Shown here one piece after another: positions 4,298 to 41,764 of a DNA stretch of 41,764 nt. Source of the stretch: a virus; IMG/VR virus record IMGVR_UViG_3300034148_000087. The stretch is one strand, 5' to 3'. The first letter of the stretch is position 1, and each line of letters starts with the position of its first letter. The notes below the pieces were generated by a model. It had not been told where the DNA came from. It saw only the letters and a list, made by a program, of their open reading frames with translations, and did not search any database. Position numbers and translations under genes: made by a program.

Positions 4298-5225
4298 ATC
4301 CCCCTCCGGGACCGGAAATAACCCTTACGGAATGATCCTGCCCAGGTATCCCGTCTACATCGTGAGCAAAGGCCGCTGGCGCCGACCCTATACCGCGCGC
4401 GCCCTGGCCCGAGACGGTGTGCCCTTCCGCCTGGTCGTGGAAGCCCAGGAAGCCGACGCTTATGCCCGGGTCGTTGGGAAGGAGCGGGTATTGGTGTTGC
4501 CCTTTGCCAATCTGGGGCTGGGTTCGATGCCGGCACGCAACTGGATTTGGGAGCACGCTCTATCGGAGGGGCACGAGCGGCACTGGGTACTGGACGACAA
4601 CATGCGCGGGTTCTACCGCCGATGGCATGGCGACCGCCTTCCTTGTGAAGGGGGCCCGGCGCTGCGGGCGTGCGAGGATTTCGTTGACCGATACGAGAAC
4701 GTGGCCCTCGCGGGCCTGAACTATTCCACCTTCGCCCATCGCAATTCGGGGCGCAAGGGAGGGATGCCGCCCTTTTACCTCAACGTCCATGTGTATTCCT
4801 GCATCCTCATCCTCTCCCGGATCCCCTATCGCTGGCGCGGTCGCTACAATGAGGACACGGATCTATGCCTGCAGGTGCTCTCCGGTGGATGGTGCACCGT
4901 CTTGCTGAATGCCTTCCTGGTGCAAAAGATGGTCACGATGGCCATGCGTGGGGGGAACACTGACGTGCTGTATGCTGGCGATGGGCGCTTGAGAATGGCC
5001 CGAAGTCTTGAACGCGCCTGGCCGGGTGTGGTACAGGTGATCCGCCGTTTCCGCCGCCCTCAGCACTGGGTGGACTGGACGAGGTTTCGGAATCGGCTGA
5101 AGCCGAAGCAGTCCCGCGGGGCGACTGAGGCCTCCGGTCTGGACTGGGCGGTGCAGCTGGAGCAGTTGGCCCCTTCTGTGAGACACCCGCGCCTTCGCCG
5201 ATACGTGTCGGAGGCAATGAAGTGA
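4284..5225 (+). CDS. GT-A-fold-like glycosyl/nucleotidyl-transferase candidate
   Basis: Overlaps the previous gene by 14 nt. Motifs: N-terminal strand YPVYIVSKGRW, DxD-like WVLDDNMRG and later RYNEDTDLCLQVL (GT2-like EDxDL). Assigned from motifs only. Confidence 0.4.
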   Translation: MPPNESPSGTGNNPYGMILPRYPVYIVSKGRWRRPYTARALARDGVPFRLVVEAQEADAYARVVGKERVLVLPFANLGLGSMPARNWIWEHALSEGHERHWVLDDNMRGFYRRWHGDRLPCEGGPALRACEDFVDRYENVALAGLNYSTFAHRNSGRKGGMPPFYLNVHVYSCILILSRIPYRWRGRYNEDTDLCLQVLSGGWCTVLLNAFLVQKMVTMAMRGGNTDVLYAGDGRLRMARSLERAWPGVVQVIRRFRRPQHWVDWTRFRNRLKPKQSRGATEASGLDWAVQLEQLAPSVRHPRLRRYVSEAMK

Positions 5226-5605
5226 AAAAGCTCGGGAAGAAGGACAGCGGTGGCGCGCGAGTGGGAGCGGGCCGCCCCCCTGGCCGATTGAACGATAAGA
5301 CCCTCCTGTTCCGTGAAGCGCTGAAGGAGGGTATCAAGGTCGTGCTGGCGAAGAATGCTGATGCGCCTCAGGACCCGGTGATCGCGTTGGGCTGGGCGTT
5401 GTACACCAAGGGCATTGCCGGTCACCCGGAGTGCCTCGTGCGCCTCGCGGAGTGGATCGGTGGGAAGCCGAAGGAAGTCATCGAGTTCGATCCCCCCATC
5501 GGAGGCGGACCCTCAGTCATCGAGTACCGATGTTTCACGGCCGAGGGCCGATCTGTATCTCCCCCCTCTGTTTCCGTACCAGGAAAGGTTCCTAAACAGA
5601 CCTGA
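5222..5605 (+). CDS. terS: Terminase small subunit candidate
   Basis: GTG start overlaps the previous stop. N-terminal GGARVGAGRPPGR DNA-binding motif and C-terminal LAEWIGGKPKEVIEF motif, both common in phage TerS-type proteins. Lies immediately upstream of terL. Confidence 0.55.
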   Translation: MKKLGKKDSGGARVGAGRPPGRLNDKTLLFREALKEGIKVVLAKNADAPQDPVIALGWALYTKGIAGHPECLVRLAEWIGGKPKEVIEFDPPIGGGPSVIEYRCFTAEGRSVSPPSVSVPGKVPKQT

Positions 5606-6887
5606 GCTTGAGCTCGTTGTCCTCTCGGCCACGCAGATCGGCAAGACCTTCGCGTGCGCCTGCTGGCTCCTCTCTTGGCTCTGGATTCATCCCCGCAAAC
5701 TCGGATGGTGGGTCGCCCCCACTCTTGAGCAAGCCCGCGAGGGTTACAACGCCCTGGTGGAGCTCAACGAGAAGGCGATGGCCGCTGGTGGGCCCGGGTT
5801 CATCGCGCGTGCCGTTGAAAGCAAGATGCGCATTTATCTGCGCAACGGATCGCGGGTGGAGTGTCGGAGCTGGGAGAAGCGGGAGAACCTTCGCGGCCGC
5901 ACCGTCGATGCGATGGTCGTGGATGAAGCCGGGCTTCTCGATTCCGCTTCGCGTGCCATTCTCTCCACCCGGCGCAGCGCCACGCTGGGACCGATCCGCT
6001 ACATCGGGAACCCCGGCCCCGTGCTGGGAGAGTTTTGGAACCTCTGTCAGCAGGCACAGGACGAAGCGAACGCCGGCCGCATCGGCTTCATCCGATGGAC
6101 GTGGCGCGACCGTTATCTTGGCCTAAAGGGAGAGCACCCGGACGGACCCACGCCTCCCGAGCTGCTCAATCCCGACGGCGCCGAGCTGTACCTAGCCTTT
6201 ATCGAGAGCGAGCGCAAGGATCTTTCGGGCTTCGAATTCGCCCAGCAGTACGAGGGAGAATTCCCAACGCCTCCCGGGGCGCTATTCGCGGAGTGGGTCG
6301 ATAAGGCGATGGTATTGGACGTGGACCAGGAGCCGCACAAGGATCACCCCTACATCATGGCGTGGGATATTGGACAGCAGAGCGGATGGACGCGGGGCGT
6401 GCCGCTGTGCCTGAAGTGCTGGGCGGTGCACTGGGTCGCGGGGATCCGCGGAGAACCTTATCCGAAGATCGAAGCCTTCATCGCTGCCGAGTCGCTGCGC
6501 TTCAATCACGCGCCTGCCATCATCGAGACGAATGGACCCGGCGGCCCGGTCTTTGATCACGTGCAGGCCCTGTACGACAAAGTGCAGAAGTGGTGGACGG
6601 ATAATCGAAATAAGCGCACCGCGGCGCTCACCGTGAATCGGGACGGAGGAGGCGGGAAGTTGAAGCTGTGCCGAGATCCGGGCCTGCGCAGCGAGATGAT
6701 GGTCTTCAAGAGCCACCAGGTCCCCAGCACCGGCACCTGGACGTTCGTCTCGCCGTCGAAGAAGGATGGCCACGGGGATCGGGTGTCCGCTTTGCTCATC
6801 GCTGTGGGGTCCGCGAGCAGTGGTGCGGAAGCCTTCCTGCGCCTACTGCAAGAGGAAATCGACAGGAACAACCCTCAGCCATCTTGA
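5415..6887 (+). CDS. terL: Terminase large subunit
   Basis: Walker A VVLSATQIGKTF, Walker B DAMVVDEAGLL, and C-terminal nuclease-like motifs (IIETNGPGG, HGDRVSALLIA). ATG 5415 is the only ATG/GTG/TTG start in frame, but the first ~45 codons look non-coding. The true start may be CTG 5553 (see findings). Confidence 0.85.
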   Translation: MPVTRSASCASRSGSVGSRRKSSSSIPPSEADPQSSSTDVSRPRADLYLPPLFPYQERFLNRPELELVVLSATQIGKTFACACWLLSWLWIHPRKLGWWVAPTLEQAREGYNALVELNEKAMAAGGPGFIARAVESKMRIYLRNGSRVECRSWEKRENLRGRTVDAMVVDEAGLLDSASRAILSTRRSATLGPIRYIGNPGPVLGEFWNLCQQAQDEANAGRIGFIRWTWRDRYLGLKGEHPDGPTPPELLNPDGAELYLAFIESERKDLSGFEFAQQYEGEFPTPPGALFAEWVDKAMVLDVDQEPHKDHPYIMAWDIGQQSGWTRGVPLCLKCWAVHWVAGIRGEPYPKIEAFIAAESLRFNHAPAIIETNGPGGPVFDHVQALYDKVQKWWTDNRNKRTAALTVNRDGGGGKLKLCRDPGLRSEMMVFKSHQVPSTGTWTFVSPSKKDGHGDRVSALLIAVGSASSGAEAFLRLLQEEIDRNNPQPS

Positions 6888-6940
6888 CATGGATCCCCAA
6901 GGGGTCGTACAGTCCCAAAACTGTAGGTCCTTTCCCTTGG

Positions 6941-7012
6941 GGCAGGGAAGTGAATGGGATCACGCAGGCCTCATAAGCCTGAAATCCGGTTCGAATCCGG
7001 CGACTGCCCCCA
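6941..7012 (+). tRNA. tRNA-like gene, anticodon CAT (Met, or Ile2 if modified), with encoded CCA
   Basis: Hand fold: acceptor ggcaggg / gactgcc (5 of 7 pairs). D arm gtga-atggga-tcac. Anticodon arm caggc-ctCATaa-gcctg (perfect, U33 and A37 present). 3-nt variable region. T arm tccgg-TTCGAAT-ccggc (4 of 5 pairs). Discriminator c, then cca. The molecule is short and has 3 mismatches at the acceptor/T junction. Confidence 0.5.
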
Positions 7013-7036
7013 ACACTTGCGCCGTGAGGGCATGAC

Positions 7037-9586
7037 GTGGAGCGCGATCCCGATACGGCATACGCCCGGACCCCCATCGATCAATCCCAAGCTCTCGCTG
7101 TCGTTGACAAACGCCGCGTGCTTCTCGACGCTCAGGGAAGGGTGACGGCGACGCGGGACATGGAAGTGTTCGAGGGCCGACCCATCAACCCGGGCGTGCC
7201 CTTGTATCCGTGGCTTCCCCGCGGTGAGGATCCGCGGCAGTTCTATATTCAGTCCGGGTACAACCTCAATTATGTTCCCCGATCCGAGTACCGGCAGCTG
7301 ACGCCGTTCGCGCTGCTCAGGAATCTTGCGGCCACGTCCGACCTGGTTCAGATTGCCCGTCAGGAAGTCATCGATGCCATTCTCAGCCTGGAATGGGACG
7401 TCGTTCCCGAGGATCCGAAGGAGCAACGCGCGAAGGGAATGAAGGAGGAGTGTGACTTCGCCAAAAACTTCCTCGCGTATCCGGATCGTGTCCACAGTTT
7501 CGAGGGCTGGCTGCACACGCTTTTGCTGGACGCCCTGGATATCGATGCGCTGTGTTTTTATCGCCGGCGAACGGTGACCGGTGAACCGCATTCCCTGATG
7601 GCCATCGATGGCGCCACCATTAAGCCCATACTGGACTGGCACGGGATCCCCCCGGAGCCGCCCGAGGTCGCCTACCAGCAGATCATCGCGGGGGTTCCCG
7701 AGACGGAATTCAGCCGCCCTTACCTGCCCGTCATGGAAGGTGAGGAGACGGATCCTACCGAGCTGGTGTACTCGCCCTTTTCGCCCCGCACATATAACGG
7801 TTACGGTCAGTCGCCGTTGGAGCGCGTGCTGATCACCGTGAACCTCACCCTTCGCCGGCAGCTGCACCATCTGGCCTATTTCACCGATGGCAATATCCCC
7901 GATGCCTTTTGGAAGTGCCCCGACGCGTGGACCGCGGCCCAGATTTTTGACTTTCAGGAGAAGCTGGAGAAGCTGCTCTCAGGAGAGAGCGGTCAGCGCC
8001 GGAAGTTGCGCATGATGCCCGGAGGAGAAGGTACCGGCCTTGAGCTCCCCCATGGAACGGAGCAAGAGCCGAACGGCCTGAATGAATTCCTTGCCCGCAC
8101 GATTGCGATGGCTTACCACACCAGCCCTCAACCCCTGGTGTCGATGATGAACCGCGCGACCGCTGAGCAGGCCGACACGTCTTCGTCGCAGAGTGGGCAC
8201 CATTACTGGATGCACAAGGTGCGCAAAATGCTCTCTCGCGAGCTGCGGGAGTACCTGCGCATCGACGGCGTCAAGTTCATTTACGTGGAAGACAAGCACC
8301 GAGACGAGACGGCCTGGACGGCGAAGGCCATCGCGTTTATTGGGCATGGGGTTTACACCAGGAACCACGTGCTGAACGAGGAGGGGCTTGAACCCATCGA
8401 GGGGGGCGACGTGCCCACCGTAGACACTCCGTCCGGTCCTGTGCCTCTGGCTGACTTCATCGCTGGTGGAGGAGGAGCGCCGACGGAAGGCGGGGCGGCC
8501 GTGGCCCGGCGTGTACTGTCCGCAGTCCCCCCGATCCCGGCGGCGGGACCGTCCGTCGATAGTGCAGCGGCAGCGGCCGCCCTGAAAGATGTGCCCCAGA
8601 TCCCCGCGGCGACGGAAAAGGGCATGATGGATGACCTGCGTCGATGGCGGAAAGTGGCTCATAAGGCAGCTACGGGCGAGCCAGACTGGAGAAAGCGGAC
8701 GCCCGAGCGCCTGCAGAAGGTGCTGGCGTTTAAGAGCGATGCCATTCCCCCGGCACTTCACTACGCGGTGACGTTGGCCCTCGAGGACGCCCTGGCCCAT
8801 CCGGGAGTGAAGCCCCGACTGGACTGGATCTTTGGTGCGATGGTGAAGGCGCGTCGCCCCCTGGTCGCCATTCGCCGCCGCCTGCGCCACGAGAAGGTTT
8901 TGAGGGCCGTGGTGAAGGAGCACTTCAAGAAGATCACTCCCGCCGTGGTCGAAGTCGCCGTGAAGATGTTCACTGACTTACAGAAGGCTGACGACCTGGA
9001 CGACGCGATGCAGATCGATTTGCTGATGGAATCACTGAGGGAGCCGCTGGCCGAGACGTACCTGGATGGGGAAGTTCTGGCGGCGGACCAATCGGGTATC
9101 GAGATTGCCTTCGGCCTGACGGAGGAGAACGCTACGGATTATGCCGAGCGCCGTGCGGCCGAGCTGGTGGGAAAGCGCAAGCTGTCCGATGGAACCTTTA
9201 TCGATTCCCCGAACCCCGACGTTGCCATCACTGAAACACTTCGCCGGGATTTGAAGGATGCGATTACCCGGGCGCTGGAGGAGGGCGTCACCGAGAGCGA
9301 GCTGCGCGATGCCATTCAGGAGGAGACGGGCTGGGGTTACCGGGCCGAGCGCATCGCCAGGACCGAGGTCGCCGTCGCACTGAATCAGGGGGCCGCGGAA
9401 ACCTATTCCGGCGCGGGGATCAATACGGTGACCATCCTTGACGGACCCGGGTGTCTGGAGTCGGGCCACGATGACGAGGAGGAAGGGGTTAACGGGGAAG
9501 TGTGGTCGATTGCCAAGTGGCAGGACTTCCCGGTCGGCCATCCCTTTTGCGTGCGGGATGGAATCCCCAATGTGAGGGAAGCATGA
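7037..9586 (+). CDS. Portal protein fused to a Mu-F / SPP1 gp7-like head-morphogenesis domain
   Basis: 849 aa, directly after terL. The N-terminal ~600 aa has portal-like size and position. The C-terminus (from about nt 9120) carries DYAERRAAELVGK...YRAERIARTEVAVALNQGAAETY...GHPFCVRDG, typical of Phage_Mu_F domains. Confidence 0.7.
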   Translation: MERDPDTAYARTPIDQSQALAVVDKRRVLLDAQGRVTATRDMEVFEGRPINPGVPLYPWLPRGEDPRQFYIQSGYNLNYVPRSEYRQLTPFALLRNLAATSDLVQIARQEVIDAILSLEWDVVPEDPKEQRAKGMKEECDFAKNFLAYPDRVHSFEGWLHTLLLDALDIDALCFYRRRTVTGEPHSLMAIDGATIKPILDWHGIPPEPPEVAYQQIIAGVPETEFSRPYLPVMEGEETDPTELVYSPFSPRTYNGYGQSPLERVLITVNLTLRRQLHHLAYFTDGNIPDAFWKCPDAWTAAQIFDFQEKLEKLLSGESGQRRKLRMMPGGEGTGLELPHGTEQEPNGLNEFLARTIAMAYHTSPQPLVSMMNRATAEQADTSSSQSGHHYWMHKVRKMLSRELREYLRIDGVKFIYVEDKHRDETAWTAKAIAFIGHGVYTRNHVLNEEGLEPIEGGDVPTVDTPSGPVPLADFIAGGGGAPTEGGAAVARRVLSAVPPIPAAGPSVDSAAAAAALKDVPQIPAATEKGMMDDLRRWRKVAHKAATGEPDWRKRTPERLQKVLAFKSDAIPPALHYAVTLALEDALAHPGVKPRLDWIFGAMVKARRPLVAIRRRLRHEKVLRAVVKEHFKKITPAVVEVAVKMFTDLQKADDLDDAMQIDLLMESLREPLAETYLDGEVLAADQSGIEIAFGLTEENATDYAERRAAELVGKRKLSDGTFIDSPNPDVAITETLRRDLKDAITRALEEGVTESELRDAIQEETGWGYRAERIARTEVAVALNQGAAETYSGAGINTVTILDGPGCLESGHDDEEEGVNGEVWSIAKWQDFPVGHPFCVRDGIPNVREA

Positions 9587-26652: not shown

Positions 26653-27221
26653 TCCACATCCCACGGGTCGCGGAAATCGAACGCGCTGTCTCCCGCCACA
26701 TCGATGTGCCCCGGGTGCTGAGCTTGCACCCGTCTGTCCGCGCTCGCTGCGTTGAGCATCTGGAGGAGGCGCGCGCCGCGAAGGTCCCATTCATCATCGC
26801 CTGCGCTTATAGGTCACCAGAGGAACAGGTGCTGGAGTATGCCAAGGGCAGGAAGGCCCTCGGGGTTGATCCTTCGACCTGGGTGCCCATGCGCCCGGAC
26901 GGACGGGGGATCGTGACGCATGCGCTACCTTGGAGATCCTGGCACCAGTATCGACTCGCCTACGATGTGGCCCTCCTCATGCCCACCGGGAAGATGGTTC
27001 ACTGGAGCGAGGTCGCGGACTTGGACGAGGACGGCCGCGCGGACTGGCTGGAGGTCGTGGAGATTGGAGAATCCCTGGAGATGGAAGCTGGCTATCGGTG
27101 GCCGAGCCGGAAGCATGATGGTCCGCACTTCGAGTTCCATCCTGGCCTGACTCTGGATGTCGCCCAGCAGCGTTTCATGTGGAACACCCTTCCCGATGAC
27201 CGCTTCGAGAGGATTGCCTGA
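26649..27221 (+). CDS. Endolysin, peptidase M15 (VanY / L-alanyl-D-glutamate peptidase-like)
   Basis: GTG (residue 51 of track ORF 26499..27221) overlaps the previous TGA. Motifs ACAYRSPEEQVLEYAKGR, SWHQYRLAYDV (SxHxxGxAxD-type) and DGPHFEF (DxxHxE). Confidence 0.8.
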   Translation: MIHIPRVAEIERAVSRHIDVPRVLSLHPSVRARCVEHLEEARAAKVPFIIACAYRSPEEQVLEYAKGRKALGVDPSTWVPMRPDGRGIVTHALPWRSWHQYRLAYDVALLMPTGKMVHWSEVADLDEDGRADWLEVVEIGESLEMEAGYRWPSRKHDGPHFEFHPGLTLDVAQQRFMWNTLPDDRFERIA

Positions 27222-30196: not shown

Positions 30197-30267
30197 CGCA
30201 TCGTGATGCGGTGCCTGACGATGGCCAGGTGGTCACGCAGAACCCTTTTCAAGGAGGACCCTACCCC

Positions 30268-31383
30268 ATGGACGTTCATCAGGTCGATTGGAGGAGTCAG
30301 CAGGGAGCCGATATTGCCCGCCAGAAACTGGGGGAGTACATCAGCAAGCAGGAAGCCAAGGCCCGCGACGCCGTGGCCCGGGTGTTCAATGAAGTGCCCG
30401 ACGACATGATCCTGCCTGCGCATGCGGTGCAGTACGTTGCCGGGACCCAGACGTACGAGGGACAGGTCGTGATGGACCTACCGGCCGAGACGCGGAGGCC
30501 GTTTCTGACCCTTCACAGCAACGCGATGCGGCAGATCGCAGGCAAGCTCGAAATGCCCGCGGCTTTTGCCCAAGAGCTCATCGACGCCGGTCCGTGGGGC
30601 GCAGAGCTGGTGGCCGATAACTTCAACCGGATTACCCGTAACCGGCTGGAGCCAGGAACCCGGGTATTGGTTCGCTCCGTGGGTGATCAGGCGCGCGCGG
30701 TGTTGAGTGATCGATACCGGCGCCTCGACTCACGGCCGGTGCTGGATGCCCTGATGGGTGCGGCCAAGGACAATGGCGCGCTCTTGGTCGATGGCTACTC
30801 CGGTGACGTGAAGGTGTGCGCCAAGTTCATCGTGCCCAGGATTCTGGAGCCGGTGCCCGGTGAGTTTATGGTGTTCGGTGTGTCGTGGTCGAACAGCGAT
30901 TACGGCTGCGGAGCCAACGAGCTGGACAGTTTCTTTGTCCGGCTGATGTGCCTCAACGGCGCCATTGCCGCGGTCGAGATGCGCAAGATCCACCTTGGCG
31001 CCAGGCTGCAGGATGGCATCCAGTATTCGGACGAGACGTATCGCCTGGACACCGAAGCCCTGGCGAGTGCGGTGAAGGACAGCGCCCGATTCCTGCTGAG
31101 CGAGGGCCGGGTGGATTCCCTCAGCGAGGCCATCCGGAAGGCGAATGCGGAGCCGGCGGACGGCAAGGCGCTGGTCGAGCGATTCAAAAGAGCATTCACC
31201 AAGAAAGAGTCGGAGCGCTTGGCCGAAATTTACACCAGCGCCGACGTGGTGAACCTGCCCGCCGGCAATTCGAACTGGCGTTTCAGCAACGCCGTTTCTT
31301 ACCTGGCGCATGAAGTTGGGGATGTGGACGGTCAGCGCGCCCTGGACATGCAGAAGTGGGCCGGGGATCTAGTCGCTGCCTAA
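30268..31383 (+). CDS. DUF932-family protein
   Basis: ATG (residue 20 of the track ORF) after AAGGAGGACCCTACCCC. ARAVLSDRYRRLDSRPVLDAL, the size (371 aa) and the C-terminal NWRFSNAVSYLAHE fit the phage/plasmid DUF932 family. Confidence 0.6.
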   Translation: MDVHQVDWRSQQGADIARQKLGEYISKQEAKARDAVARVFNEVPDDMILPAHAVQYVAGTQTYEGQVVMDLPAETRRPFLTLHSNAMRQIAGKLEMPAAFAQELIDAGPWGAELVADNFNRITRNRLEPGTRVLVRSVGDQARAVLSDRYRRLDSRPVLDALMGAAKDNGALLVDGYSGDVKVCAKFIVPRILEPVPGEFMVFGVSWSNSDYGCGANELDSFFVRLMCLNGAIAAVEMRKIHLGARLQDGIQYSDETYRLDTEALASAVKDSARFLLSEGRVDSLSEAIRKANAEPADGKALVERFKRAFTKKESERLAEIYTSADVVNLPAGNSNWRFSNAVSYLAHEVGDVDGQRALDMQKWAGDLVAA

Positions 31384-31464
31384 TGGTGAGGCCGGGGGCA
31401 CATGCCCCCGTAAACCCCAGCGCGGGTGCCAAGGCCCGCGCCTTTCCAAAGGAGGATCCGACCC

Positions 31465-31653
31465 GTGGAAACGACACGCACCTTGTTGAACACACTGACG
31501 AAGAGGCTGAAGCAGGAGTACACAGACGAGCTGAGCAAGCTCTCCTTTAAGCCCAAGGTTCGCGAGACGCTGATCGATGGGTTTTCGGATGGCGTGCGCA
31601 ATGGAATTCAGCACACCGTCAGGATGCTGGGAGTCACGATCCTCGAAAAATAG
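31465..31653 (+). CDS. Hypothetical protein (62 aa)
   Basis: GTG (residue 14 of track ORF 31426..31653) after AAAGGAGGATCCGACCC. Confidence 0.55.
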   Translation: METTRTLLNTLTKRLKQEYTDELSKLSFKPKVRETLIDGFSDGVRNGIQHTVRMLGVTILEK

Positions 31654-33202: not shown

Positions 33203-34048
33203 ATGCGCCCAACTGAGGGACCCAGGCCCTTTTCCATTTCACAGTGGAGAACCTATCAGCGCTGCGCGGCCCAGTACCGCTTCGGTTACATCGAGGGAGG
33301 CGCCAGCGCAGCCAATACTCTGATGATCCGCGGGCGGGGGGTGGATTCTGCCGCGAGCCACAATTATCGCCAGAAGGCCATGAGCCATCATGACCTTCCG
33401 GTCCGAGACGTGATGGACGTGGCGGCGACTGCCGTCGATGAAGCGTTTCATGGTCGCGTGATCTTGACCCGGGACGAGCGCGGCATCGGACACCGTAACG
33501 TGCAGGGCGCCGTGCTGGACGAAGCGGTGCGCATGGCCAGGGTCTATCACATGCACCTGGCTCCTTCGGTTCAGCCGGCTCTGGACAAAGAAGGAAAGCC
33601 TGCCGTCCAGGAGCGCTTGCTCGTGACGCCGGCGGCGAACATCCTGTCGCGGCCACTCGTTGGCATCGTGGACGTGAGGACTGCCGACGGCGGGATCTTG
33701 GACGTGAAGGCGAAGAAGGCCGCGCTTCGGGAGGGCGATGAGCACAGCGATCTTCAGCTGACCGCATACGCGGCCCTGGCCCACGCGGTGCACGGCAAGA
33801 TGCCCGCCTATGTAGGCTTCGACATCGTGCACGGGGGTCGCGGGAAGCGCATCGGATCGGAGCGCCGGACCTCGACCCGCACCCGGGAGGATTTTATCGC
33901 CCTGGCCGACAACTTCCGCGCGACGGTGGGAGCGATTGAGGCCGGGTCCTTTCCGCCCACGGGTATGAATACGTGGGCCTGTTCGGAGGAAAACTGTACG
34001 TTCTGGGAGGAATGCCCATTCGTCCGTGGCGTGCGTTCACGCCGCTAA
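33203..34048 (+). CDS. PD-(D/E)XK exonuclease, Cas4/RecB-like with a Cys cluster
   Basis: ATG (residue 49 of the track ORF) after GAAGGAGGACAACG. Motifs IVDVRT...ILDVKAKK (D...D/ExK) and DLQLTAYA (QxxxY). One N-terminal Cys (YQRCAAQY) plus C-terminal CSEENCTFWEEC, as in Cas4/AddB-type Fe-S nucleases. Confidence 0.7.
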   Translation: MRPTEGPRPFSISQWRTYQRCAAQYRFGYIEGGASAANTLMIRGRGVDSAASHNYRQKAMSHHDLPVRDVMDVAATAVDEAFHGRVILTRDERGIGHRNVQGAVLDEAVRMARVYHMHLAPSVQPALDKEGKPAVQERLLVTPAANILSRPLVGIVDVRTADGGILDVKAKKAALREGDEHSDLQLTAYAALAHAVHGKMPAYVGFDIVHGGRGKRIGSERRTSTRTREDFIALADNFRATVGAIEAGSFPPTGMNTWACSEENCTFWEECPFVRGVRSRR

Positions 34049-34076
34049 TCACTTCACCGCTGGAGGATTTACTGCA

Positions 34077-35015
34077 ATGGCAACGACACCGAAACGATCC
34101 GAATCCCCGACACCCAATCCTCCGCCACAGCTGGAGCCGGAGGTCGATTACCTGCATGAGGTCGGGCCCGCTGGAGCCATCATCCGCGGCGGCGCGGCGC
34201 TGACCCGAATCGAAAACGACACCATCGCGCAGATGGCAATCACGAGGCCACGGAACCCAGCGAAGGTTCTCCAGGCGTGTCTGAAAGAGCTGGAGCTGAT
34301 GGATCCGAAGCGGGCGGAAAAGCTCTGGTACAAGATCCCCTACAAGGACGATGGCGCCGAAGGCGGGCAGTCGATGGTGCAGGGGATCAATATCCGTGCG
34401 GCCAACATCATGGTCCGGCAGTGGGGCAACTGCTCCGCGTCCTGCCGGGAGGTTGAGCGCAATGAGGACGGGACCACGCTGGAGGGGGTGTTCATCGATT
34501 TCGAGACGATGACCCGCATCCAGGGAATCCGGGTTGCCTCGTGGTATCGCAAGCTGAAGGGCAAGAACCAGGTCGTGCGGCTGCGGGCGGATGAGTTCGC
34601 CAACGCCGTGATCATCGCGGGGCAGAAGGCAAAGCGCAACGCGATCCTGGACGGCCTGCCCGACTATCTCAAGGAGGCGTTCTGGAATAAGGCCCGGGCC
34701 ATTGCTGCCGGGAATGTCGCACGCCCCGAGGGTAAGAAGATTTCCCCGGCCGAGGTCGCCAAGCGGATCGTGGATGCCTTTCTGCCGTACCAGGTATCGC
34801 GTGCCGACCTGGAGAAAAAACTCGGGCACGAGCTTGAAAAGTGCAAGCCGGAGGAGTGGGCCGACCTGAAGGGCATGCTGAACGCCCTGGAGCAGCGCGA
34901 GGTCAGCGCCAACGATTTGTTCCCGCCCGAGGAAGAGCCGGGCGTGACTACCCCCGAGCGCGAACCAGGCGAGGAGGCAGAGGGCGAGGAGGAAAGTCCT
35001 CTGTTCGGCAAGTGA
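34077..35015 (+). CDS. Putative single-strand annealing protein (RecT/Bet-like)
   Basis: Immediately downstream of the exonuclease. LWYKIPY, SMVQGINIRAANIMVRQWGN and AGQKAKRNAILDGLP resemble recombinase motifs. Acidic C-terminal tail. The family assignment is tentative. Confidence 0.45.
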   Translation: MATTPKRSESPTPNPPPQLEPEVDYLHEVGPAGAIIRGGAALTRIENDTIAQMAITRPRNPAKVLQACLKELELMDPKRAEKLWYKIPYKDDGAEGGQSMVQGINIRAANIMVRQWGNCSASCREVERNEDGTTLEGVFIDFETMTRIQGIRVASWYRKLKGKNQVVRLRADEFANAVIIAGQKAKRNAILDGLPDYLKEAFWNKARAIAAGNVARPEGKKISPAEVAKRIVDAFLPYQVSRADLEKKLGHELEKCKPEEWADLKGMLNALEQREVSANDLFPPEEEPGVTTPEREPGEEAEGEEESPLFGK

Positions 35016-35281
35016 GCGGTGCGCCACGCCTGGCCATCCGCGACGAGAAGCCATGGGTCGTTGCCTACATCGCCTCGGAGGGAACGATGGACGACGCCAT
35101 CGAGATCGCCAGGATCTTGCGCCGGATTGTCAACGAGGATGGTGGTCTCGACGGGCAAGTGTGGCAGGACTGGAAAGCAGCTCTGTCCGAGTATTTGCGA
35201 CGCTTCGTCGAACGCCTTACCGGGAAACCAGCCCCCGAGCTGGTGGAGCGTGAAGTCCCGCCGCACGAAAAGCTCCAATGA
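35012..35281 (+). CDS. Hypothetical protein (89 aa)
   Basis: GTG (residue 58 of track ORF 34841..35281) overlaps the previous TGA. Confidence 0.55.
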   Translation: MSGAPRLAIRDEKPWVVAYIASEGTMDDAIEIARILRRIVNEDGGLDGQVWQDWKAALSEYLRRFVERLTGKPAPELVEREVPPHEKLQ

Positions 35282-35514
35282 TCGGCCGGTGCTCCCGGTG
35301 TCGCCGGCCGATGAAGGGCAGCACTGCCTATGATGGGGCCTGTGCCTGCGGAGGGTTGATCGAAGTCGGGGGCGCGGGGGTTCAGCCGGATCCCCGCGCT
35401 CGCGAGCTGATGGAAGCAGCGATAGAGATTCAGGAGAAACTTTCACCCGAGGAGCTGGACGAACTTGAACGCCAAACCATGAGGAGGACCCGTGCCCACG
35501 AAAAAGACCAGTAA
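35278..35514 (+). CDS. Small zinc-ribbon-like protein (78 aa)
   Basis: ATGA overlap. Motifs CSRC ... CACGG. Confidence 0.55.
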   Translation: MIGRCSRCRRPMKGSTAYDGACACGGLIEVGGAGVQPDPRARELMEAAIEIQEKLSPEELDELERQTMRRTRAHEKDQ

Positions 35515-36220
35515 CCCCCCCCCGTCACTCCCGGTCCCGCAACCCCCCGGTCGCAATCTCGGCGTGCTGGATGCGATGGTCCAGACCGCCGTGCAGAATG
35601 CATCGAAGACCATGGTTCGTTACCGCGGCGCCCTGGAAACCGCCGACCGCGTGCAGATCACGAACGAGCATGAACGGGAATCATGGTCTGCGTTCCATGC
35701 GGATCTTACCGAGGCCTTTAAGCTGGTAGATCAAGAGCGGAAGGATGCAGCCGCCCCGTGGGACCGGGTGACCAAATCCATCAATGCCGCGTACCGCACC
35801 ACCCTCGACGCCCTTGACTCTGCGAAGCGGCTGGTGGGCAACCGCCTGGCCGTGTTCATTGCCGAGGAGAGGAGCCGTCAGGAGAAGGAACTGGAGGATC
35901 AGCGCGAGCGGGAGCGCCTGGCCGCGAAGCACGCCCAGGAGTCAGGGCAGCAGATCGTGGTGCGCCCGAAGGCGGCGGAGGTACCCGTGCAGTCAGCGGT
36001 CAGGACGTCTGCCGGTACTACCTCAACGCGCGAGAACTGGGACTGTGAGGTCACGAACCTGGAAATCATCCCCCGGGAATTTCTGGTCTTCGACAAACAG
36101 CTGGTCGTTGCCAAGTGCCGTTCGATGGAGAAGTCGGTCGGCGCTCCGCGCGAGGACGCCTTTGCTGGGTTGCGGGTGTTCAAGGCAGTCAGCGTCGCCT
36201 CCTCGAAGCGGGTGCTGTGA
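35492..36220 (+). CDS. Gp157-like protein (coiled coil plus C-terminal beta domain)
   Basis: GTG after GAGGAGGACCC. Central charged coiled coil and C-terminal NWDCEVTNLEIIPREFLVFDKQLV...GLRVF resemble the siphovirus Gp157 family pattern. Tentative. Confidence 0.4.
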   Translation: MPTKKTSNPPPSLPVPQPPGRNLGVLDAMVQTAVQNASKTMVRYRGALETADRVQITNEHERESWSAFHADLTEAFKLVDQERKDAAAPWDRVTKSINAAYRTTLDALDSAKRLVGNRLAVFIAEERSRQEKELEDQRERERLAAKHAQESGQQIVVRPKAAEVPVQSAVRTSAGTTSTRENWDCEVTNLEIIPREFLVFDKQLVVAKCRSMEKSVGAPREDAFAGLRVFKAVSVASSKRVL

Positions 36221-36618
36221 TGGACGGCTCTGGTTTTTACTATCTCCATACGAATGGTGAGCTGATCTATAAACGCTTCCGACCGGACCCGTCTGACTTC
36301 GTCCGTCGCATTTGGGAAATCGAACCCTCGGATCGTGGAAATGCCTGGAGGATCCTCCTCGAGGCCGCGGCGCTTGGGATCCGCCAGGACCGGCTGGATG
36401 AGCTTTGCCGTGCGTGGGGTATCACGCCGGTGGACCTGGTGGAGTATTTCTCCCGAGTCGGCTCCAAGGATTCGACCAAGGAACGCTTTGAGGGGATGAA
36501 ACGGATCATCAGCTCGGTGTGGCGGTACAATCCCGACGAGCTCCTGGATCACATTAGCGCGACACCACCCGGGGGCCGGCCCGACATGAGCAAATATCCC
36601 TGGCCGAACCCACGATGA
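36220..36618 (+). CDS. Hypothetical protein (132 aa)
   Basis: ATGA overlap (residue 36 of track ORF 36115..36618). Confidence 0.6.
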   Translation: MDGSGFYYLHTNGELIYKRFRPDPSDFVRRIWEIEPSDRGNAWRILLEAAALGIRQDRLDELCRAWGITPVDLVEYFSRVGSKDSTKERFEGMKRIISSVWRYNPDELLDHISATPPGGRPDMSKYPWPNPR

Positions 36619-36833
36619 GCGCCCAGCTTATTTTAAAAGCCGGAACCATTGAGCTGTGGACGGAGGGCCTGGATGACCCAGGCCCTGAGTTCAAGATTTT
36701 CGCCCGATGTTCCTACTGCGGCGTAATACTCCACTCCAGGACCCTTAGCGCTACCGCGGACAAGGAACAGGCATTCGGAGCCGTTCATGACGCCATGGTC
36801 GCGAATGCTCATTCTTGCGCTGAAAAGAACTAG
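36615..36833 (+). CDS. Hypothetical protein (72 aa)
   Basis: ATGA overlap. CSYCG motif. Confidence 0.55.
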   Translation: MSAQLILKAGTIELWTEGLDDPGPEFKIFARCSYCGVILHSRTLSATADKEQAFGAVHDAMVANAHSCAEKN

Positions 36834-36888
36834 GCGACGGCCGAGGACGGGCAGAAGGCCCGGCCAGGCAGCCCCAGGCTGAGCGTCC

Positions 36889-36948
36889 GGCAGGTGGGCG
36901 AGGGGATTGCCTTCACCCCTTCCCGCCTGCCATGGGGCGGCCCATGGC
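36889..36948 (+). other. Two adjacent strong hairpins in the intergenic region
   Basis: ggcaggtgggcgagggg (36889-36905) pairs with ccccttcccgcctgcc (36916-36931) with one bulge. This is followed by gccatggg-gcgg-cccatggc (36929-36948), which shares 3 nt with the first 3' arm. Confidence 0.5.
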
Positions 36949-37095
36949 GCCCTGATGGAGAAAATGAATCGAGAGGAGGAACTGTCGATTTGCCATGCGG
37001 GGGGTCGTGGTAGGATGCGCCGGGGTCGAGGCGGGTCGGGTCGGGTCCTCCCTGCCGAAGTCGGTCGCCGCAAGCGCCCGGCCGGCCCCAAAAAA

Positions 37096-37111
37096 TGTTT
37101 CACGTGAAACA
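37096..37111. promoter_or_regulatory. parS: Perfect consensus parS site
   Basis: TGTTTCACGTGAAACA is a 16-bp perfect palindrome identical to the chromosomal ParB/Spo0J parS consensus. It is intergenic, 31 nt upstream of the ATG at 37142. Confidence 0.75.
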
Positions 37112-37141
37112 CTCCCTCATCCCCGTCGACCCGGAGGGCAG

Positions 37142-38101
37142 ATGTACCACGAAGTCGATACCGATCTTCCCAACCACAAAAAGTCGAGACGGTTGGCGGC
37201 TCTGCTCGGAGAGCGGCGCGCCTGGACCCGCATCGTGGAGCTATGGCTCTGGGCAAACCTGTACGCCCTGGATGGTGATCTCTCTGACATGACTGATGAG
37301 GATCTTGCGTACGCGATGGGGTACAGATTTGAGAGTGCCATCCCAAAAGACATCAGGAAAGCACTCATTTCTTCCGGGTTTTTAACACAGGATGGTCAAC
37401 TTCATGGGTGGTCAGAGCGAGCTAAGAACTTGAAAAAGAAGCGACTTGCGATGCGCAAGCTGCGAGCGGCCCGTGGTGAATCTGTTACCGCAATGTTACC
37501 GCTTAGTGGTGCCGCTGTGGCGCCTGATCTTGAACTTGAACTAGAGCATGATCTTGAACATGATCCCCCTATATCCCCCCTTTGTGTTCCCTGTACCTTG
37601 GTGGCGAAAGAACTGGAGGAGCTGTCCGAGGTTGCCCCCCGATGGACGGAGAGAGGCCACATCGAGAAGATCCATTCCCGCCACGCCGAGCACGGGGTCG
37701 AGAAGTGCCTGGACGTTGTCCGGGTGGTGGTGCCAAGGCTGATGCGCAGCGACGATTTCAAGCGTTTCGCCCGCGTGGATACTCTGTTCGGCCCCAAGAA
37801 TTTCCTCAAATACCTGGATGAAGTGAAGCTGGCGCGTACCCGGACACACGACCCGAGCCGGTCAGGACTGAATGGGTACCGACGCACAGGGGATGAACCA
37901 TCCGAGTCAGAGAAACCCCTTTCACCAGCGGTACTTCGCTCAGTGGTCGACTATCACATCTCAAAAATCAAGACCCGGCTCGGTGACGCCGAGGAGCTGG
38001 CCCAGTATCCCCATCTGAAGGCCCTCCTTGAGGAGCAATTAACCGCGCTGGAGGCTGAGCGCGCCGTGATCGTGGTGCCAGAAAGTGAGGCAGAGCAATG
38101 A
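37142..38101 (+). CDS. Replication-organiser-like protein (DUF4373/DnaD-like N-terminus, tentative)
   Basis: ATG (residue 50 of track ORF 36995..38101) after GGAGGGCAG. The N-terminal pattern YHEVDTDLPNHKKSRRLAALLGERRAWTRIVELWLWA...DEDLAYAMGY...IRKALISSGFL resembles Lin1244/DUF4373-type phage replication proteins. Acidic DLELELEHDLEHD linker. Confidence 0.4.
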   Translation: MYHEVDTDLPNHKKSRRLAALLGERRAWTRIVELWLWANLYALDGDLSDMTDEDLAYAMGYRFESAIPKDIRKALISSGFLTQDGQLHGWSERAKNLKKKRLAMRKLRAARGESVTAMLPLSGAAVAPDLELELEHDLEHDPPISPLCVPCTLVAKELEELSEVAPRWTERGHIEKIHSRHAEHGVEKCLDVVRVVVPRLMRSDDFKRFARVDTLFGPKNFLKYLDEVKLARTRTHDPSRSGLNGYRRTGDEPSESEKPLSPAVLRSVVDYHISKIKTRLGDAEELAQYPHLKALLEEQLTALEAERAVIVVPESEAEQ

Positions 38102-38316
38102 AACACCACCACTGTTCATGCTGGAAGAAGCATCTTCGGAAGATGTCAATCAAGGCGGGGGAGAGGCTGAGCGCCCGCCGCACCACCGGGATCTGTATCC
38201 GCTGCGGTCAGAAACCTTCGAAGGTGGGCCGAGCGATGTGTGAGAGATGCCTTGCCGAGAACGCTTTGGCGGTCAGAGCGCATCGCGAGGCCCAAACGAA
38301 ACGGAGGGTTGGATGA
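38098..38316 (+). CDS. Small zinc-ribbon-like protein (72 aa)
   Basis: ATGA overlap. Motifs HHHCSC, CIRCG and CERC. Confidence 0.55.
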   Translation: MKHHHCSCWKKHLRKMSIKAGERLSARRTTGICIRCGQKPSKVGRAMCERCLAENALAVRAHREAQTKRRVG

Positions 38317-38714
38317 AAAAACCAAAACACGAGAAGGGCAAAGAGCCGTGGGCGACCGAGAACCGGGTGCTTCCGGTAGAGCTTACCGAGGAGGAAATCC
38401 GGCAGCATCGCAAGGACCTGGCCCAGCGCATGGTTCAAATCATTCAGACAGAGGAGGAGCTTGCAGCCCATTCAGCCGACGTCAGGGGCCGGCTGAAGGA
38501 AGCCACGGCTGGGGTCCGGCGCCTGGCCAGGATCATCTCCTCCGGAACCGACCAGCGCAGCGTGGCGTGCTCAGTGTATCGCCGGCTTGAGGACCGGATG
38601 CACGTCGTGGTGCGTAACGATACGGACGAGGTCGTGTTCGAGCGCGGGCTGACAGAGGAGGAGGAGTTGGCCCTCCGTCAGCAGGCACTTCCCGGAGTTG
38701 AGGCCATTCAGTGA
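38313..38714 (+). CDS. Hypothetical protein (133 aa)
   Basis: ATGA overlap (residue 23 of track ORF 38247..38714). Confidence 0.6.
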   Translation: MKKPKHEKGKEPWATENRVLPVELTEEEIRQHRKDLAQRMVQIIQTEEELAAHSADVRGRLKEATAGVRRLARIISSGTDQRSVACSVYRRLEDRMHVVVRNDTDEVVFERGLTEEEELALRQQALPGVEAIQ

Positions 38715-39436
38715 ATCCAGAAATCCCACTCTCCGATGTGTGGGACGAGTGCGCCATCGATGCTGAGATTCTCGGCCGCAACGCAGCCGCGCGCAAGATA
38801 GCTAAACGCCTGCCACCGCTCTCTGACCAGGCGAAACAGGTTGCACTCACCGGTGATTTCGAGGCGATGTTGAGCGAGGCCGCATTTGAACGCTGGACCG
38901 GCATCCCGAGGAAGCGCCCAAAGCCGGGCGAACAACGGGACTTCGGAGATGTAGAGGGCGGGGGCAGCGTGAAGTCGGCGCCGGACTTTCGGGACGTGTT
39001 GTTCCGAAAGCAACAGAATTGGGCGGTGGCGGCCTGGCAGTTTACTCATGCGCAGTGGATCGTTTTTCTTTCTATCGAGAAGGGCCGGGACCTAGGCCCT
39101 ATCACCGAGTGGCAGTCGCGCATGGCGTCCAAGTGCCTTTTTACCCGACGGTGGATTGAGCGCGGCCGCTGGCTGGAGCCGCTTGCTGTGATCCGCGGCT
39201 GGCTTCCCAACGCGGCCCTTGAAGTCCTCCCGCCCCGCGTGAACGAGGAGGATGGCCAGCACCGGCTCAACGATTCGTGGCGTCTCGTAGGAGTGGAACT
39301 GATCCGGCCGTGGCCGGATCACCCGCGGCCCATCTCGGCCTGGCTCTTGAGGGATTTACTGGCGGTCGAGCCAAGAGAGGAGGAACGTCAAAGTTTCTTG
39401 GATGGCATGAAGCGCAGTCTGTATCCCACGGACTGA
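38711..39436 (+). CDS. Hypothetical protein (241 aa)
   Basis: GTGA overlap. Trp-rich. No family recognised. Confidence 0.6.
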   Translation: MNPEIPLSDVWDECAIDAEILGRNAAARKIAKRLPPLSDQAKQVALTGDFEAMLSEAAFERWTGIPRKRPKPGEQRDFGDVEGGGSVKSAPDFRDVLFRKQQNWAVAAWQFTHAQWIVFLSIEKGRDLGPITEWQSRMASKCLFTRRWIERGRWLEPLAVIRGWLPNAALEVLPPRVNEEDGQHRLNDSWRLVGVELIRPWPDHPRPISAWLLRDLLAVEPREEERQSFLDGMKRSLYPTD

Positions 39437-39504
39437 CCTTGCTCGGAGCCGGAAGCCCCCTGAGCATTGATCCCAACCCGCTTCCGAGTGGAAGGAGTGA
39501 CCCG

Positions 39505-39963
39505 ATGCAAGTTCCAAAAGTTCCCGTTCGGATCTTGGCAGCTCTGGTCGGGATGGTTTTTGTTCTCTCAGCCGCGTTCGCTGCCCTGGCCGTTACGTCC
39601 AGTGCTTTCATCGCGGCCGTTGCCGCCCAGCCACGTGCTGACAGGATGGAGAGTGTTTGTTTTTACCTGCCTGACGGCAAGACGATTAACCTCCCCTATG
39701 TAAACCCGCCGCACCGCGGTGACAACCTGGAGATTCGCTCCGCGCTGGTCGAGACGGCCACGCGGCACCGAGCCGACGTCGTCGCCTCAGGCAAGGCCAC
39801 CGGCTGGGAGGACCGCATGGTTCTGGCTGCGATGACGGAGCAGTGGAGCGAAGGCGGGCTATCCTGCACCTACGGGATCAGCCGCTCCGGGGGTCGGATG
39901 TACAACTGCACCTGCGATGCCGGCGGCGGGGGCTGCACCCGCGTCATCGTGAAAGAGTACTAG
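39505..39963 (+). CDS. Secreted or membrane-anchored Cys-containing protein (152 aa)
   Basis: ATG (residue 77 of track ORF 39277..39963) after GGAAGGAGTGACCCG. The N-terminal hydrophobic segment ILAALVGMVFVLSAAFAALAV is signal-anchor-like. Confidence 0.55.
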   Translation: MQVPKVPVRILAALVGMVFVLSAAFAALAVTSSAFIAAVAAQPRADRMESVCFYLPDGKTINLPYVNPPHRGDNLEIRSALVETATRHRADVVASGKATGWEDRMVLAAMTEQWSEGGLSCTYGISRSGGRMYNCTCDAGGGGCTRVIVKEY

Positions 39964-40345
39964 GAAATCACCGCGCGGTGCGGTGGTGACCCCCTGCCCG
40001 TCCTGGGTGAAAGCCCGAATCGCTGCTCTCTGAGGAGGGCGGGCGGGGGAACTTTTCAAGAAGAGGGGTGCCGGACTGAATTGTCTCCCGCCTTACCCGG
40101 CGGGCGGGTGTGCACAGCACCATTCGGCCAGCGCTGGGAGGATGCGCGCGCATTATCCCACGACTGACGAAATGGGAGCCGGGAGCTTTATGAACATCCG
40201 ATCTGCCGTCGCCTGCCAGGGCCCCATCCGATAGCGGTTTCCCCGGGCGGTTCCGAGTGGAGGTTGCTTGTTGAGACGGGAGGGAGTACAGCGGGCGACG
40301 GCGTTTTCTCATCCATCACTTTAACTTTCGGAAAGGACCCGAACC

Positions 40346-41764
40346 ATGACTGAGCGCGAGCCGGGAATAAAAAAATCCCAACTGGTCTACGTGAAGCCCG
40401 GGGACCTTCATGTGCACCCGCAGAATCCCCGCAAGACCTACGATGCCGACGAGCTGAAGGATCTCCGGGCCAGCATTGCGAAGAAGGGGATTCAGACGCC
40501 TTTGATTGCCCGTCCCCACAAAGATGGGCTGCAGGTGCTGTGCGGTTCGCGCCGGCTGAAGGCTGCGCTGGCCGAGAAGTTTACCGAGGTCCCGGTGCTG
40601 ATGCGCGAGGTCGAGGACGCGCAGGCGCTGGACGTGATGATCATCGACAATCTTCAGCGGGAAGGAATTCACCCGCTCGAGGAGGCGGCCGCGTTCCGGC
40701 AGTTGCTCAAGGGTTCCTCGGATGTGGCCGGCCTGGCGGCATCGATCGGCCGGTCTCCCCGGTTCGTTTACGACCGGCTGAATCTCTTGCAGCTGACGAA
40801 ATCTGCGGCGGATCTGTTTCGCTGCGGGAAGTTCGAGCTGGGCCAGGCCATCCTCATTGCACGGTTGAACGAGGAGGACCAAAAGAGGCTGATCGGAACG
40901 CAGCATGATCCAGGGCCGCTATTCCAGCATCTTTCGATGCTGCCGTGGGATCAAGAGCCGGACGGGAAGGACGCCCTGGTCAAGTACAAGCCCATCAGCG
41001 TGCGGGAGCTCCAGGCGTGGATTGACAAGTACGTGCGCCTGAGTATCAAAGAGGCCCCGGATGCGATGCTGTTCCCTGCCGCCGCGCAGGCCGTTCAAGC
41101 TCCCGACGGGGATGCCGTGGAGCAGGTTGTCGCCATCACCCGGCTGCACCAGCTGCCGCAGGGAACCAAGGATGACGGCCGCACCTATACCCCCGCCACC
41201 TGGCGCGAGGCGAAGAAGCCCTGCGAGAAAACCCTTACGGGCGTGGTGGTGGTAGGCCCTGGCCGCGGCGATGCCCTGCAGGTGTGTGTGGACAAGAAAC
41301 GATGCAAGGTTCACTGGGCCGCCGAGATCCGTGAAGCCCAGAAACGCACGAAGGATGTCGCCACCGGAAAGACCACCCGGGAGAAGGCTGCTGAGGAGAG
41401 ACAGCGCCGCTATGACAGAGAGCAAGAGGCGAGGGAGCAGGCCCGGGTGCTGTGGTCGAAGGGCACTCCCCTGGTATTACAGGCGATGGCGACCAATCTC
41501 ATGCGAATGCGCAGCGTCACGGGACTGGTGACCGACGTCGTGGTCAGCTCCTTGAACCATGGCGTGACCGGTCAGGCCCATCGCGGGATGGTTCCCCGCG
41601 GTAAGGCCCTGGAACAGATCTTGAAACACCTATGCTGGCTGGTACTGGTGAATGAGGCCGGCAAATGGGATGCACCGACCAGCTTTCCGAAGCTGGCCAA
41701 GGCTTTCCAGGTCGATACGAAGAAGGTGCTGGCGTCGCTGGACAAGGAAACACCGGCGAAGAAG
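40346..41764 (+). CDS. parB: ParB (canonical N-terminal CTPase-type domain plus HTH, with a long C-terminal extension); continues to base 133 across the junction
   Basis: Not in the ORF track because there is no stop before the window end. Motifs VKPGDLHVHPQNPRKTYDADELKDLRASIAKKGIQTPLI (box I), LCGSRRLKAAL (box II arginine patch) and IIDNLQREGIHPLEEAAAFRQLL (box III), followed by an HTH-like LAASIGRSPRFVYDRLNLLQL. About 475 aa including the wrapped tail. Confidence 0.8.
   Translation, partial: MTEREPGIKKSQLVYVKPGDLHVHPQNPRKTYDADELKDLRASIAKKGIQTPLIARPHKDGLQVLCGSRRLKAALAEKFTEVPVLMREVEDAQALDVMIIDNLQREGIHPLEEAAAFRQLLKGSSDVAGLAASIGRSPRFVYDRLNLLQLTKSAADLFRCGKFELGQAILIARLNEEDQKRLIGTQHDPGPLFQHLSMLPWDQEPDGKDALVKYKPISVRELQAWIDKYVRLSIKEAPDAMLFPAAAQAVQAPDGDAVEQVVAITRLHQLPQGTKDDGRTYTPATWREAKKPCEKTLTGVVVVGPGRGDALQVCVDKKRCKVHWAAEIREAQKRTKDVATGKTTREKAAEERQRRYDREQEAREQARVLWSKGTPLVLQAMATNLMRMRSVTGLVTDVVVSSLNHGVTGQAHRGMVPRGKALEQILKHLCWLVLVNEAGKWDAPTSFPKLAKAFQVDTKKVLASLDKETPAKK
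41638..41764. repeat. Terminal direct repeat, right copy (identical to 1-127)
   Basis: Same 127-mer as 1-127. The match starts at g41638 and runs to the last base. Confidence 0.95.

Follow-up and report, generated by a model that had tools for sequence, protein, structure and literature searches.

A consensus chromosomal-type parS site in the leader of a phage replication-initiator-like gene, and its candidate readers

Why should a phage that encodes a ParB, and in which no ParA is recognised, carry a perfect copy of the parS site of bacterial chromosomes, and which protein reads it? The question arose from a preliminary description of the window, as the whole 41,764-nucleotide stretch of viral DNA analysed here is called. 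The window is of 61% GC, and almost all of its genes are on the + strand. Positions 1-127 exactly repeat positions 41638-41764, and this 127-bp terminal overlap indicates a circularly closed assembly with a true length of 41,637 bp. The site itself is the following:

37096-37111, no strand assigned: parS, the perfect chromosomal-type consensus TGTTTCACGTGAAACA, identified by exact match, identical in L204, L202 and L286 and kept as cGTTCCACGTGAAACA in L201

A sequence scan confirmed this palindrome as first described. TGTTTCACGTGAAACA matches the chromosomal parS consensus tGTTNCACGTGAAACa, a 16-bp inverted repeat, at 16 of 16 positions, and its identity is thereby established. An A6 run (37090-37095) directly precedes it, within a 308-nt gap (36834-37141) that separates a 72-aa ORF (36615-36833) from a 319-aa gene starting at 37142. 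When up to three mismatches were allowed over the window, the single perfect site was again found, and the sole further match (27171-27186) had three mismatches. The lone half-site elsewhere, originally placed at 5530-5537, lies at 5531-5538, and one copy is the number predicted by chance. Base composition predicts 2.4e-6 copies of parS per genome. The site is also the only perfect 16-bp palindrome of the genome, for which about 0.9 of any sequence would be expected. The same parS was present in L202 (Logan) and L286 (JGI), two independent assemblies of the window phage; L286, from another JGI sample, has four mismatches to the window in 2,945 bp. The independent assemblies and the negligible chance expectation indicate that the observation is real and not an artefact. 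Judged from its sequence, the palindrome is a genuine, selected chromosomal-type parS beside a putative phage origin.

The gene downstream of the site had been described as replication-organiser-like, and the profile searches bear this out in the form of an initiator-like product, which matched phrog_9474 ('replication initiation protein', 1.6e-10) and, weakly, Phg_2220_C. A PD-(D/E)XK nuclease and probable recombination genes lie upstream of this gene, termed rep. The elements around parS, and a related element near parB, are as follows:

37008-37020, + strand: probable TG-extended -10 element for rep and its operon (TGGTAGGAT, then GCGC), recognised from a repeated motif
37022-37048, + strand: G-rich leader block GGGGTCGAGGCGGGTCGGGTCGGGTCC, conserved, between the promoter-like element and parS
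37142-38101, + strand: rep, replication-initiator-like gene (319 aa; phrog_9474), with the ribosome-binding site GGAGGG at 37134-37139
37473-37590, no strand assigned: putative replication origin inside rep, with iterons, a GATC cluster and TATAT
40136-40147, + strand: second promoter-like element GGGAGGATGCGC, recognised as a repeat of the motif, in the 382-nt gap upstream of parB

The motif GGNAGGATGCGC has exactly two copies in the genome, both on the + strand: one (37009) in the gap that precedes rep, the other (40136) in the gap that precedes parB. Because it is confined to these two large gaps, and because the equivalent hexamer in the related genome L201 is TATAAT, the copy upstream of rep is probably the TG-extended -10 element of the rep operon. 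The parS site lies about 80 nt downstream of this element and 31 nt upstream of the rep start codon. Inside rep, TGTTACCGC iterons are found at 37483 and 37494 with 11-bp phasing, together with three GATC sites (37526-37565) and the arrangement CCCCC-TATAT-CCCCCC (37565-37580); a local GC minimum of 0.45 adjoins them. This layout is conserved as DNA in L201, across a linker where the proteins differ, and resembles the lambda-type origin embedded in an initiator gene. The iteron/GATC/TATAT element is probably the replication origin of the phage, and parS is situated about 370 bp upstream of it.

The position of parS relative to rep is conserved among the relatives of Rep. L204, whose Rep is 67% identical to that of the window, has the exact 16-mer at the same position, with conserved flanks. 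L201 (Rep 56% identical, ParB 51%) has cGTTCCACGTGAAACA at this position, though the spacer has diverged and contains a 50-nt insertion. The versions of L201 and L204 both remain within the parS consensus, the substitutions of L201 affecting the variable position 5 (as in the B. subtilis-type TGTTCCACGTGAAACA) and the outermost position 1. The GGGGTCGAGGCGGGTCGGGTCGGGTCC block is near-identical in the window, L204 and L201, despite the divergence of the remaining spacer. The more distant L205 matches the Rep N-terminus only, and at the equivalent position no parS was found; a TTGACA-17-TATAAC promoter and a hairpin are present instead. Homologues of Rep are few: three were found among 5.8 billion proteins, IMG/VR gave none, and the JGI metagenomes gave the window phage again only. 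Among 81 loci of the ParB family presented below, Rep was found only in L201, and the Rep module has been inherited independently of the ParB gene. On these few homologues, parS appears to travel with a very rare Rep leader (window, L204 and L201). The presence of the site in related phages, a check that had been set beforehand, was thus borne out for L204 and L201, and the wider ParB family almost entirely lacked it.

Pfam was searched in six frames with all ORFs of at least 95 aa on both strands, plus + strand ORFs down to 62 aa. The matches comprised terminase, portal, Mu-F, TAGT, PDDEXK, DUF6166 and M15 peptidase, and no ParA (CbiA/AAA_31/ParA), integrase or HTH repressor was found in the window. 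PHROGs scans and motif searches of the window likewise gave no ParA, integrase or recognisable repressor. The deviant Walker A motif KGGxGK[ST] was absent in every frame, and endolysin was the sole addition that PHROGs made in the unannotated 24-33 kb region. At profile level this agrees with the inventory originally reported, in which ParA, integrase and a recognisable repressor are missing; small novel repressors are possible.

The genome encodes three ParB-fold proteins and not a single one, as had been thought. One of them is the following:

40346-41764, continuing across the circular junction to position 133, + strand: long orphan ParB (474 aa), identified by Pfam, TIGR00180 and a structure model

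The ParB_N (1.6e-17) and HTH_ParB (7.9e-8) domains were both present, and TIGR00180 was matched at 110 bits, above the NCBI cutoff. The boxes that had been called intact deviate, with GSRR for GERR in box II and NPR in place of QPR. In the AF2 model (pLDDT 86.8), residues 1-185 superpose on the Caulobacter ParB-parS complex 6t1f with a TM of 0.77 and an rmsd of 1.9 A; KorB was a weaker match, in structure and in sequence, than the chromosomal ParBs. The C-terminal extension of about 290 aa carries a C293/C314/C320/H323 cluster, invariant across the family, in a beta-rich domain (residues ~260-325) that may be a zinc-binding module. The C-terminal domain had no match among solved structures, and matched only long ParBs of uncultured phages. 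The ParA-stimulating motif of ParB, (L/F/I)G(K/R)G(L/F/I) in the criterion of PMC12704722, is absent from the 474 residues.

The residues of Caulobacter ParB that contact parS are Q162, K171, S172, R173, N178, G201 and R204 (Jalal et al., PMC7383237). In a family alignment of the long ParBs anchored on Caulobacter numbering, the window ParB reads V, R, S, P, D, G and I in the same order, a difference at four of the seven, and also T179R. The replacements are family-wide: Q162 is replaced by V, I or A, R173 by V, E, A or P (P in the window), and N178 by D, T179 by R and R204 by I or V, each of the last three in 69 of 71 proteins. G170, K/R171, S172 and G201 are retained. The contact residues replaced in the long ParB are conserved in both ParB and Noc (PMC7383237). 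Q52 and E93 of M. xanthus ParB, residues mutated in the hydrolysis-defective variants crystallised with CTP-gamma-S or CDP (PDB 7bnr, 7o0n), correspond to N27 and S68 of the window ParB. As these two are replaced while the RR of GERR is kept, the window ParB is predicted to bind CTP but to hydrolyse it poorly, turning it over slowly.

The window ParB is a full-length member of a family of about 70 long ParBs (450-590 aa), mostly found on viral contigs of ~40 kb, with which it shares 30-51% identity, the Cys/His cluster and the YVYDR helix. A genome scan with an 11-sequence ParB alignment placed the full-length relatives in genome bins mainly in Acidobacteriota MAGs. The host of the window phage is probably a Gram-negative soil bacterium, and its association with Acidobacteriota, drawn from these MAG bins, is tentative. 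The family includes temperate members, as L138 encodes an integrase (phrog_1, 1.3e-19; 5850-7280) beside a parS-like site; the window phage has no integrase.

Canonical parS, with at most one mismatch, was found in only 1 of 80 long-ParB loci (1.34 Mb). Chromosomal parB loci, used as a positive control that validated the scan, had it within 10 kb in 51 of 75 cases (97 sites in 1.25 Mb). Canonical parS was on this account ruled out as the cognate site of the family. A de novo palindrome search recovered TGCAGACGTCTGCA instead, exact in 22 of 81 long-ParB loci against 0.3 expected, and in 46 of 81 when up to two mismatches were allowed. In 25 loci the palindrome is found over the 3' end of parB, at most ~40 bp beyond it, or 19-53 bp ahead of the gene, and placement abutting parB is classic for a ParB's own site. 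The palindrome GTGCAGACGTCTGCAC is thus, on its distribution, probably the own site of the long-ParB family. Examples of (G)TGCAGACGTCTGCA(C) are at 11403 in L135, 11415 in L158, 11424 in L186 and 374 in L159 (the loci range from L121 to L201). The central ACGT is all that this palindrome has in common with parS; the retention of G201 together with an altered recognition helix would fit this. The initial view of parS as the partner of the phage ParB has accordingly lost ground to the retooled recognition helix, the other palindrome of the family and the contrast between the two sets of loci. A common gene context was sought for the parS-like sites of other long-ParB phages and was rejected, as the contexts were heterogeneous (primase; repressor-like gene and RecT; integrase).

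We infer that parS is read by the host ParB, in the manner of phi29, and that it would serve to position or partition the replicon and possibly to modulate rep; this reading is given about an even chance. Recruitment of host ParB was one of the options listed in the preliminary description, and it is the one that the evidence favours. A site that had co-evolved with a divergent ParB need not match the consensus at 16 of 16 positions, and the parS-contact residues of the phage ParB are replaced throughout its family, in which canonical parS is very rare, against its frequent occurrence in the chromosomal controls. The family has its own palindrome, and L186, L193 and L147 carry this palindrome plus a separate canonical-like parS, as would be expected if the two sites were read by two different proteins. 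The host reader is also favoured by the association of parS with the Rep leader, close to the conserved iteron/GATC/AT-rich element, by the phi29 precedent, and by the occurrence of the exact 16-mer on at least 120 IMG/VR contigs. With no ParA in the genome and no ParA-stimulating motif in the phage ParB, only the host ParB could engage the host ParA.

According to this proposal, host ParB-CTP dimers would nucleate at the phage parS and slide onto the flanking phage DNA. The origin region would become a partition complex, to be positioned or segregated by host ParA and possibly by SMC. Inheritance or positioning of unintegrated phage genomes (in a carrier state, in pseudolysogeny or in a plasmid-like state) would then need no phage ParA. 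As parS lies between the promoter-like element and the start codon, its occupancy could also dampen rep expression, and might couple replication to the assembly of the partition complex.

Several observations weigh against the host reader. The window and L201 are themselves without the family site, and their ParBs have R174 in place of K174, so that a change of specificity is possible. There is one parS in the window, against five in phi29. The relatives are binned mostly in Acidobacteriota, and a canonical ParB in the host is a presumption. The TAGT module of the window suggests a DNA hypermodification that could alter the recognition of a T-rich site, and the parS-like sites of other family members occur in varied contexts. 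The benefit of partition to the window phage is conjectural, as no lysogeny or plasmid-maintenance functions were recognised.

The change of specificity leads to a second reading, the main rival, in which the long ParB of the window and L201 was retargeted from the lost family site to canonical parS and reads parS itself. This is possible and not favoured. Such a ParB would be a KorB-like CTP clamp regulating rep or early transcription, or a ParA-independent origin organiser, and it might additionally bind host chromosomal parS sites. The presence of the family palindrome correlates with K at the position equivalent to Caulobacter 174: the site-bearing relatives have K174, the window and L201 ParBs have R174, and of the eight R174-type loci seven are without the family site. 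Neither GTGCAGACGTCTGCAC (at up to three mismatches) nor its 10-bp core was found in the window or L201, yet their ParB is intact, and the canonical or canonical-like parS is the only strong palindrome that these two genomes have in common. The kept G170, K/R171, S172 and G201, and the fit of the N-terminal part to the ParB-parS complex, are also compatible with a phage reader, and the distance of ~80 nt from the promoter-like element to parS would suit a regulation of the KorB type (PMC11790492).

Retargeting is not favoured because the other R174-type loci, five in number, have no parS-like site, and because the signature YVYDR...GHA(I/V)L (D178, R179, I204) is unchanged in the window ParB. 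The change from GTGCAGAC to TGTTTCAC alters six of the eight half-site positions, whereas only residues 173 and 174 differ consistently between the proteins. Convergence on all 16 consensus positions would be hard to explain in the absence of a canonical reader. The parS site is 3.2 kb upstream of parB, in a different transcription unit, and does not abut it as the family site does in most other members. No alternative palindrome was found that is shared by the R174 subgroup or lies near parB in the window or L201. A further extension of this reading, in which a retargeted, poorly hydrolysing phage ParB would load at the phage origin and at the host chromosomal parS sites, and would displace or compete with the host ParB so as to subvert segregation or SMC loading during infection, marking the phage replicon at the same time, is doubtful.

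It is improbable that the palindrome is unrelated to ParB and acts as an operator of Rep or of another phage regulator, or as a hairpin or terminator of the leader RNA. Inverted-repeat operators for the initiator are a feature of iteron plasmids, and the palindrome does stand downstream of a promoter-like element and ahead of the rep start codon. TGTT opens the iterons inside rep as well as the parS half-site, but the similarity is limited to 4-5 bases; with only TGTT in common, this was judged insufficient, and a Rep operator recognised through the iterons was rejected. An arbitrary operator would match parS at all eight half-site positions with a probability of ~1.5e-5. Read on the minus strand, the palindrome runs into T6, a weak terminator-like shape, but the A-run is not conserved in L201. 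The terminator scan and a generic sigma-70 promoter scan gave no call at parS, the sigma-70 scan gave none at the promoter-like element either, and no Rfam family was matched at parS. Shuffled sequence folds as well as the leader RNA (z = -0.49). The substitutions of L201 break would-be hairpin pairs (U-A to C.A), without compensation, and yet fit the parS consensus. The L201 substitutions and the weak folding of the leader correspond to a DNA site read by a protein and not to an RNA element, and an RNA hairpin or attenuator was rejected on its folding energy, the lack of compensatory change and the lack of an Rfam family.

That parS is a passenger, either a fragment captured recently from a host chromosome or a neutral relic without current function, is very improbable: phage genomes are mosaic and the Rep module is extremely rare and inherited independently of the ParB gene, but the 16-mer was kept where Rep is only 56-67% identical and the spacer has diverged or gained its insertion, its position relative to rep is fixed, and a blastn search of INPHARED with its flanks (34000-41764) matched none of the deposited phages. 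The literature was also searched for parS as a protection from Wadjet/MksBEFG, and no support was found.

The host-ParB reading is closest to the case of phi29, in which five parS sites are bound by the host Spo0J and the genome is segregated into the prespore (Meijer et al. 2005, summarised in PMC2731898). The phage phi29 resembles the window phage in having no ParA, no integrase, and a host-type parS identical or near-identical to that of the host; in both, a host-consensus parS is carried by a phage without a canonical ParAB of its own. With its five sites, phi29 has a linear genome replicated by protein priming, infects a sporulating Firmicute and encodes no ParB. The window phage has instead a circular assembly of 61% GC, a divergent ParB of its own, and a single site in the leader of an iteron-type initiator, so that several sites spread over the genome, as in phi29, were not seen. 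The element is consequently less unprecedented than had been implied, since phi29 carries the parS of the host Spo0J and the exact 16-mer is not confined to the window phage. Among the IMG/VR matches listed, 119 had no canonical parB in the flanks, one had a canonical parB, and none had a parA.

Some of the listed IMG/VR contigs hold four to five exact parS and have no flanking parAB; five-copy clusters beside a terminase-like gene are among them. L006 (6545-9574) and L020 look phi29-like, with a protein-primed polymerase and an encapsidation ATPase, and such contigs hold four exact parS. In L021 (2657-3429) and L061 (10535-11447), the exact parS form a cluster shortly before a terminase-large-like gene.

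Chromosomal parS sites cluster near oriC. The window phage resembles chromosomal ParABS in the identical 16 bp, in a site near its putative origin, and in the ParB-CTP clamp loading to be expected at such a site. It differs in having no ParA, non-canonical parS contacts in its ParB, no ParA-binding motif, and a parS that is single and not beside parB; the ParA, the ParA-stimulating motif, the parS-contact residues and the parS beside parAB that mark a canonical ParABS locus were thus not found in the window. The prophage-plasmids P1, P7 and N15 likewise maintain an extrachromosomal phage genome with a ParB-type centromere in place of integration, but they have their own ParA and ParB and element-specific parS repeats by the operon, whereas the window phage has no ParA and the host consensus. 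The parABS of mycobacteriophages are own partition loci of the same kind.

KorB of RK2, with KorA (PMC11790492), is a ParB-family protein, as is V. cholerae ParB2 at ori2 (PMC3688505), which has parS2 as its site and from there extends into rctA; bound close to promoters or replication-control regions, such a protein modulates transcription or initiation. A site near a promoter or a replication control, as in these two systems, suits a parS between promoter and rep. KorB differs in having OB sites of its own and KorA as a partner, and no KorA-like partner or ParB2-style spreading target was recognised in the window. Orphan ParB-fold proteins are widely documented on phages (PMC12704722). Exploitation of host parS is known from phi29, and in the literature found no phage initiator gene was described as having a consensus parS in its leader.

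If the host ParB loads at the site, the exploitation of host centromeres would not be peculiar to phi29 and sporulating Bacillus and would be a wider phage strategy, in which an unrelated, high-GC environmental phage has the host parS placed at the phage origin. A similar indication comes from the many viral contigs that carry exact parS but no parAB. A phage without integrase and ParA would thereby have a simple route to persist in dividing cells. Perhaps no less useful than the parS finding itself, a large family of long orphan phage ParBs is defined here, with a retooled recognition helix and a candidate cognate site, forming a natural pair in which to study the diversification of ParB specificity, and the window and L201 provide a concrete case of a cognate site lost or swapped.

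The two other ParB-fold proteins of the window are short, tandem ParB_N-only proteins without HTH (2928-3590 and 3587-4297; phrog_620, e-26 and e-29). A TET-associated glycosyltransferase (Pfam TAGT, 6.4e-46; 4284-5225) directly follows this pair, and the terminase genes begin shortly after the module. ParB proteins that lack an HTH and activate phage DNA dioxygenases have been described (PMC13229309), and the tandem ParB_N and TAGT module resembles them. No Tet/JBP-like dioxygenase was detected in the window; two ORFs near the module (2249/2403-2885 and 1362-1790) have no assigned function. The DNA of the window phage may be hypermodified. GATC occurs 286 times in the genome against ~145 expected, and the half-site TGCAGAC/GTCTGCA of the family palindrome once, against ~8-9 by a rough composition estimate.

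Two RNA features were also recorded. A tRNA-Met (CAT) is encoded on the + strand at 6941-7012, where 149 nt separate the large terminase gene from the portal gene. A type-P5 twister ribozyme was matched by Rfam at 31385-31438 on the + strand (40.7 bits, gathering score 37.6; E = 3.3e-5), beginning right after the stop of a 390-aa gene (30211-31383) and extending into the start of the next ORF (31426-31653).
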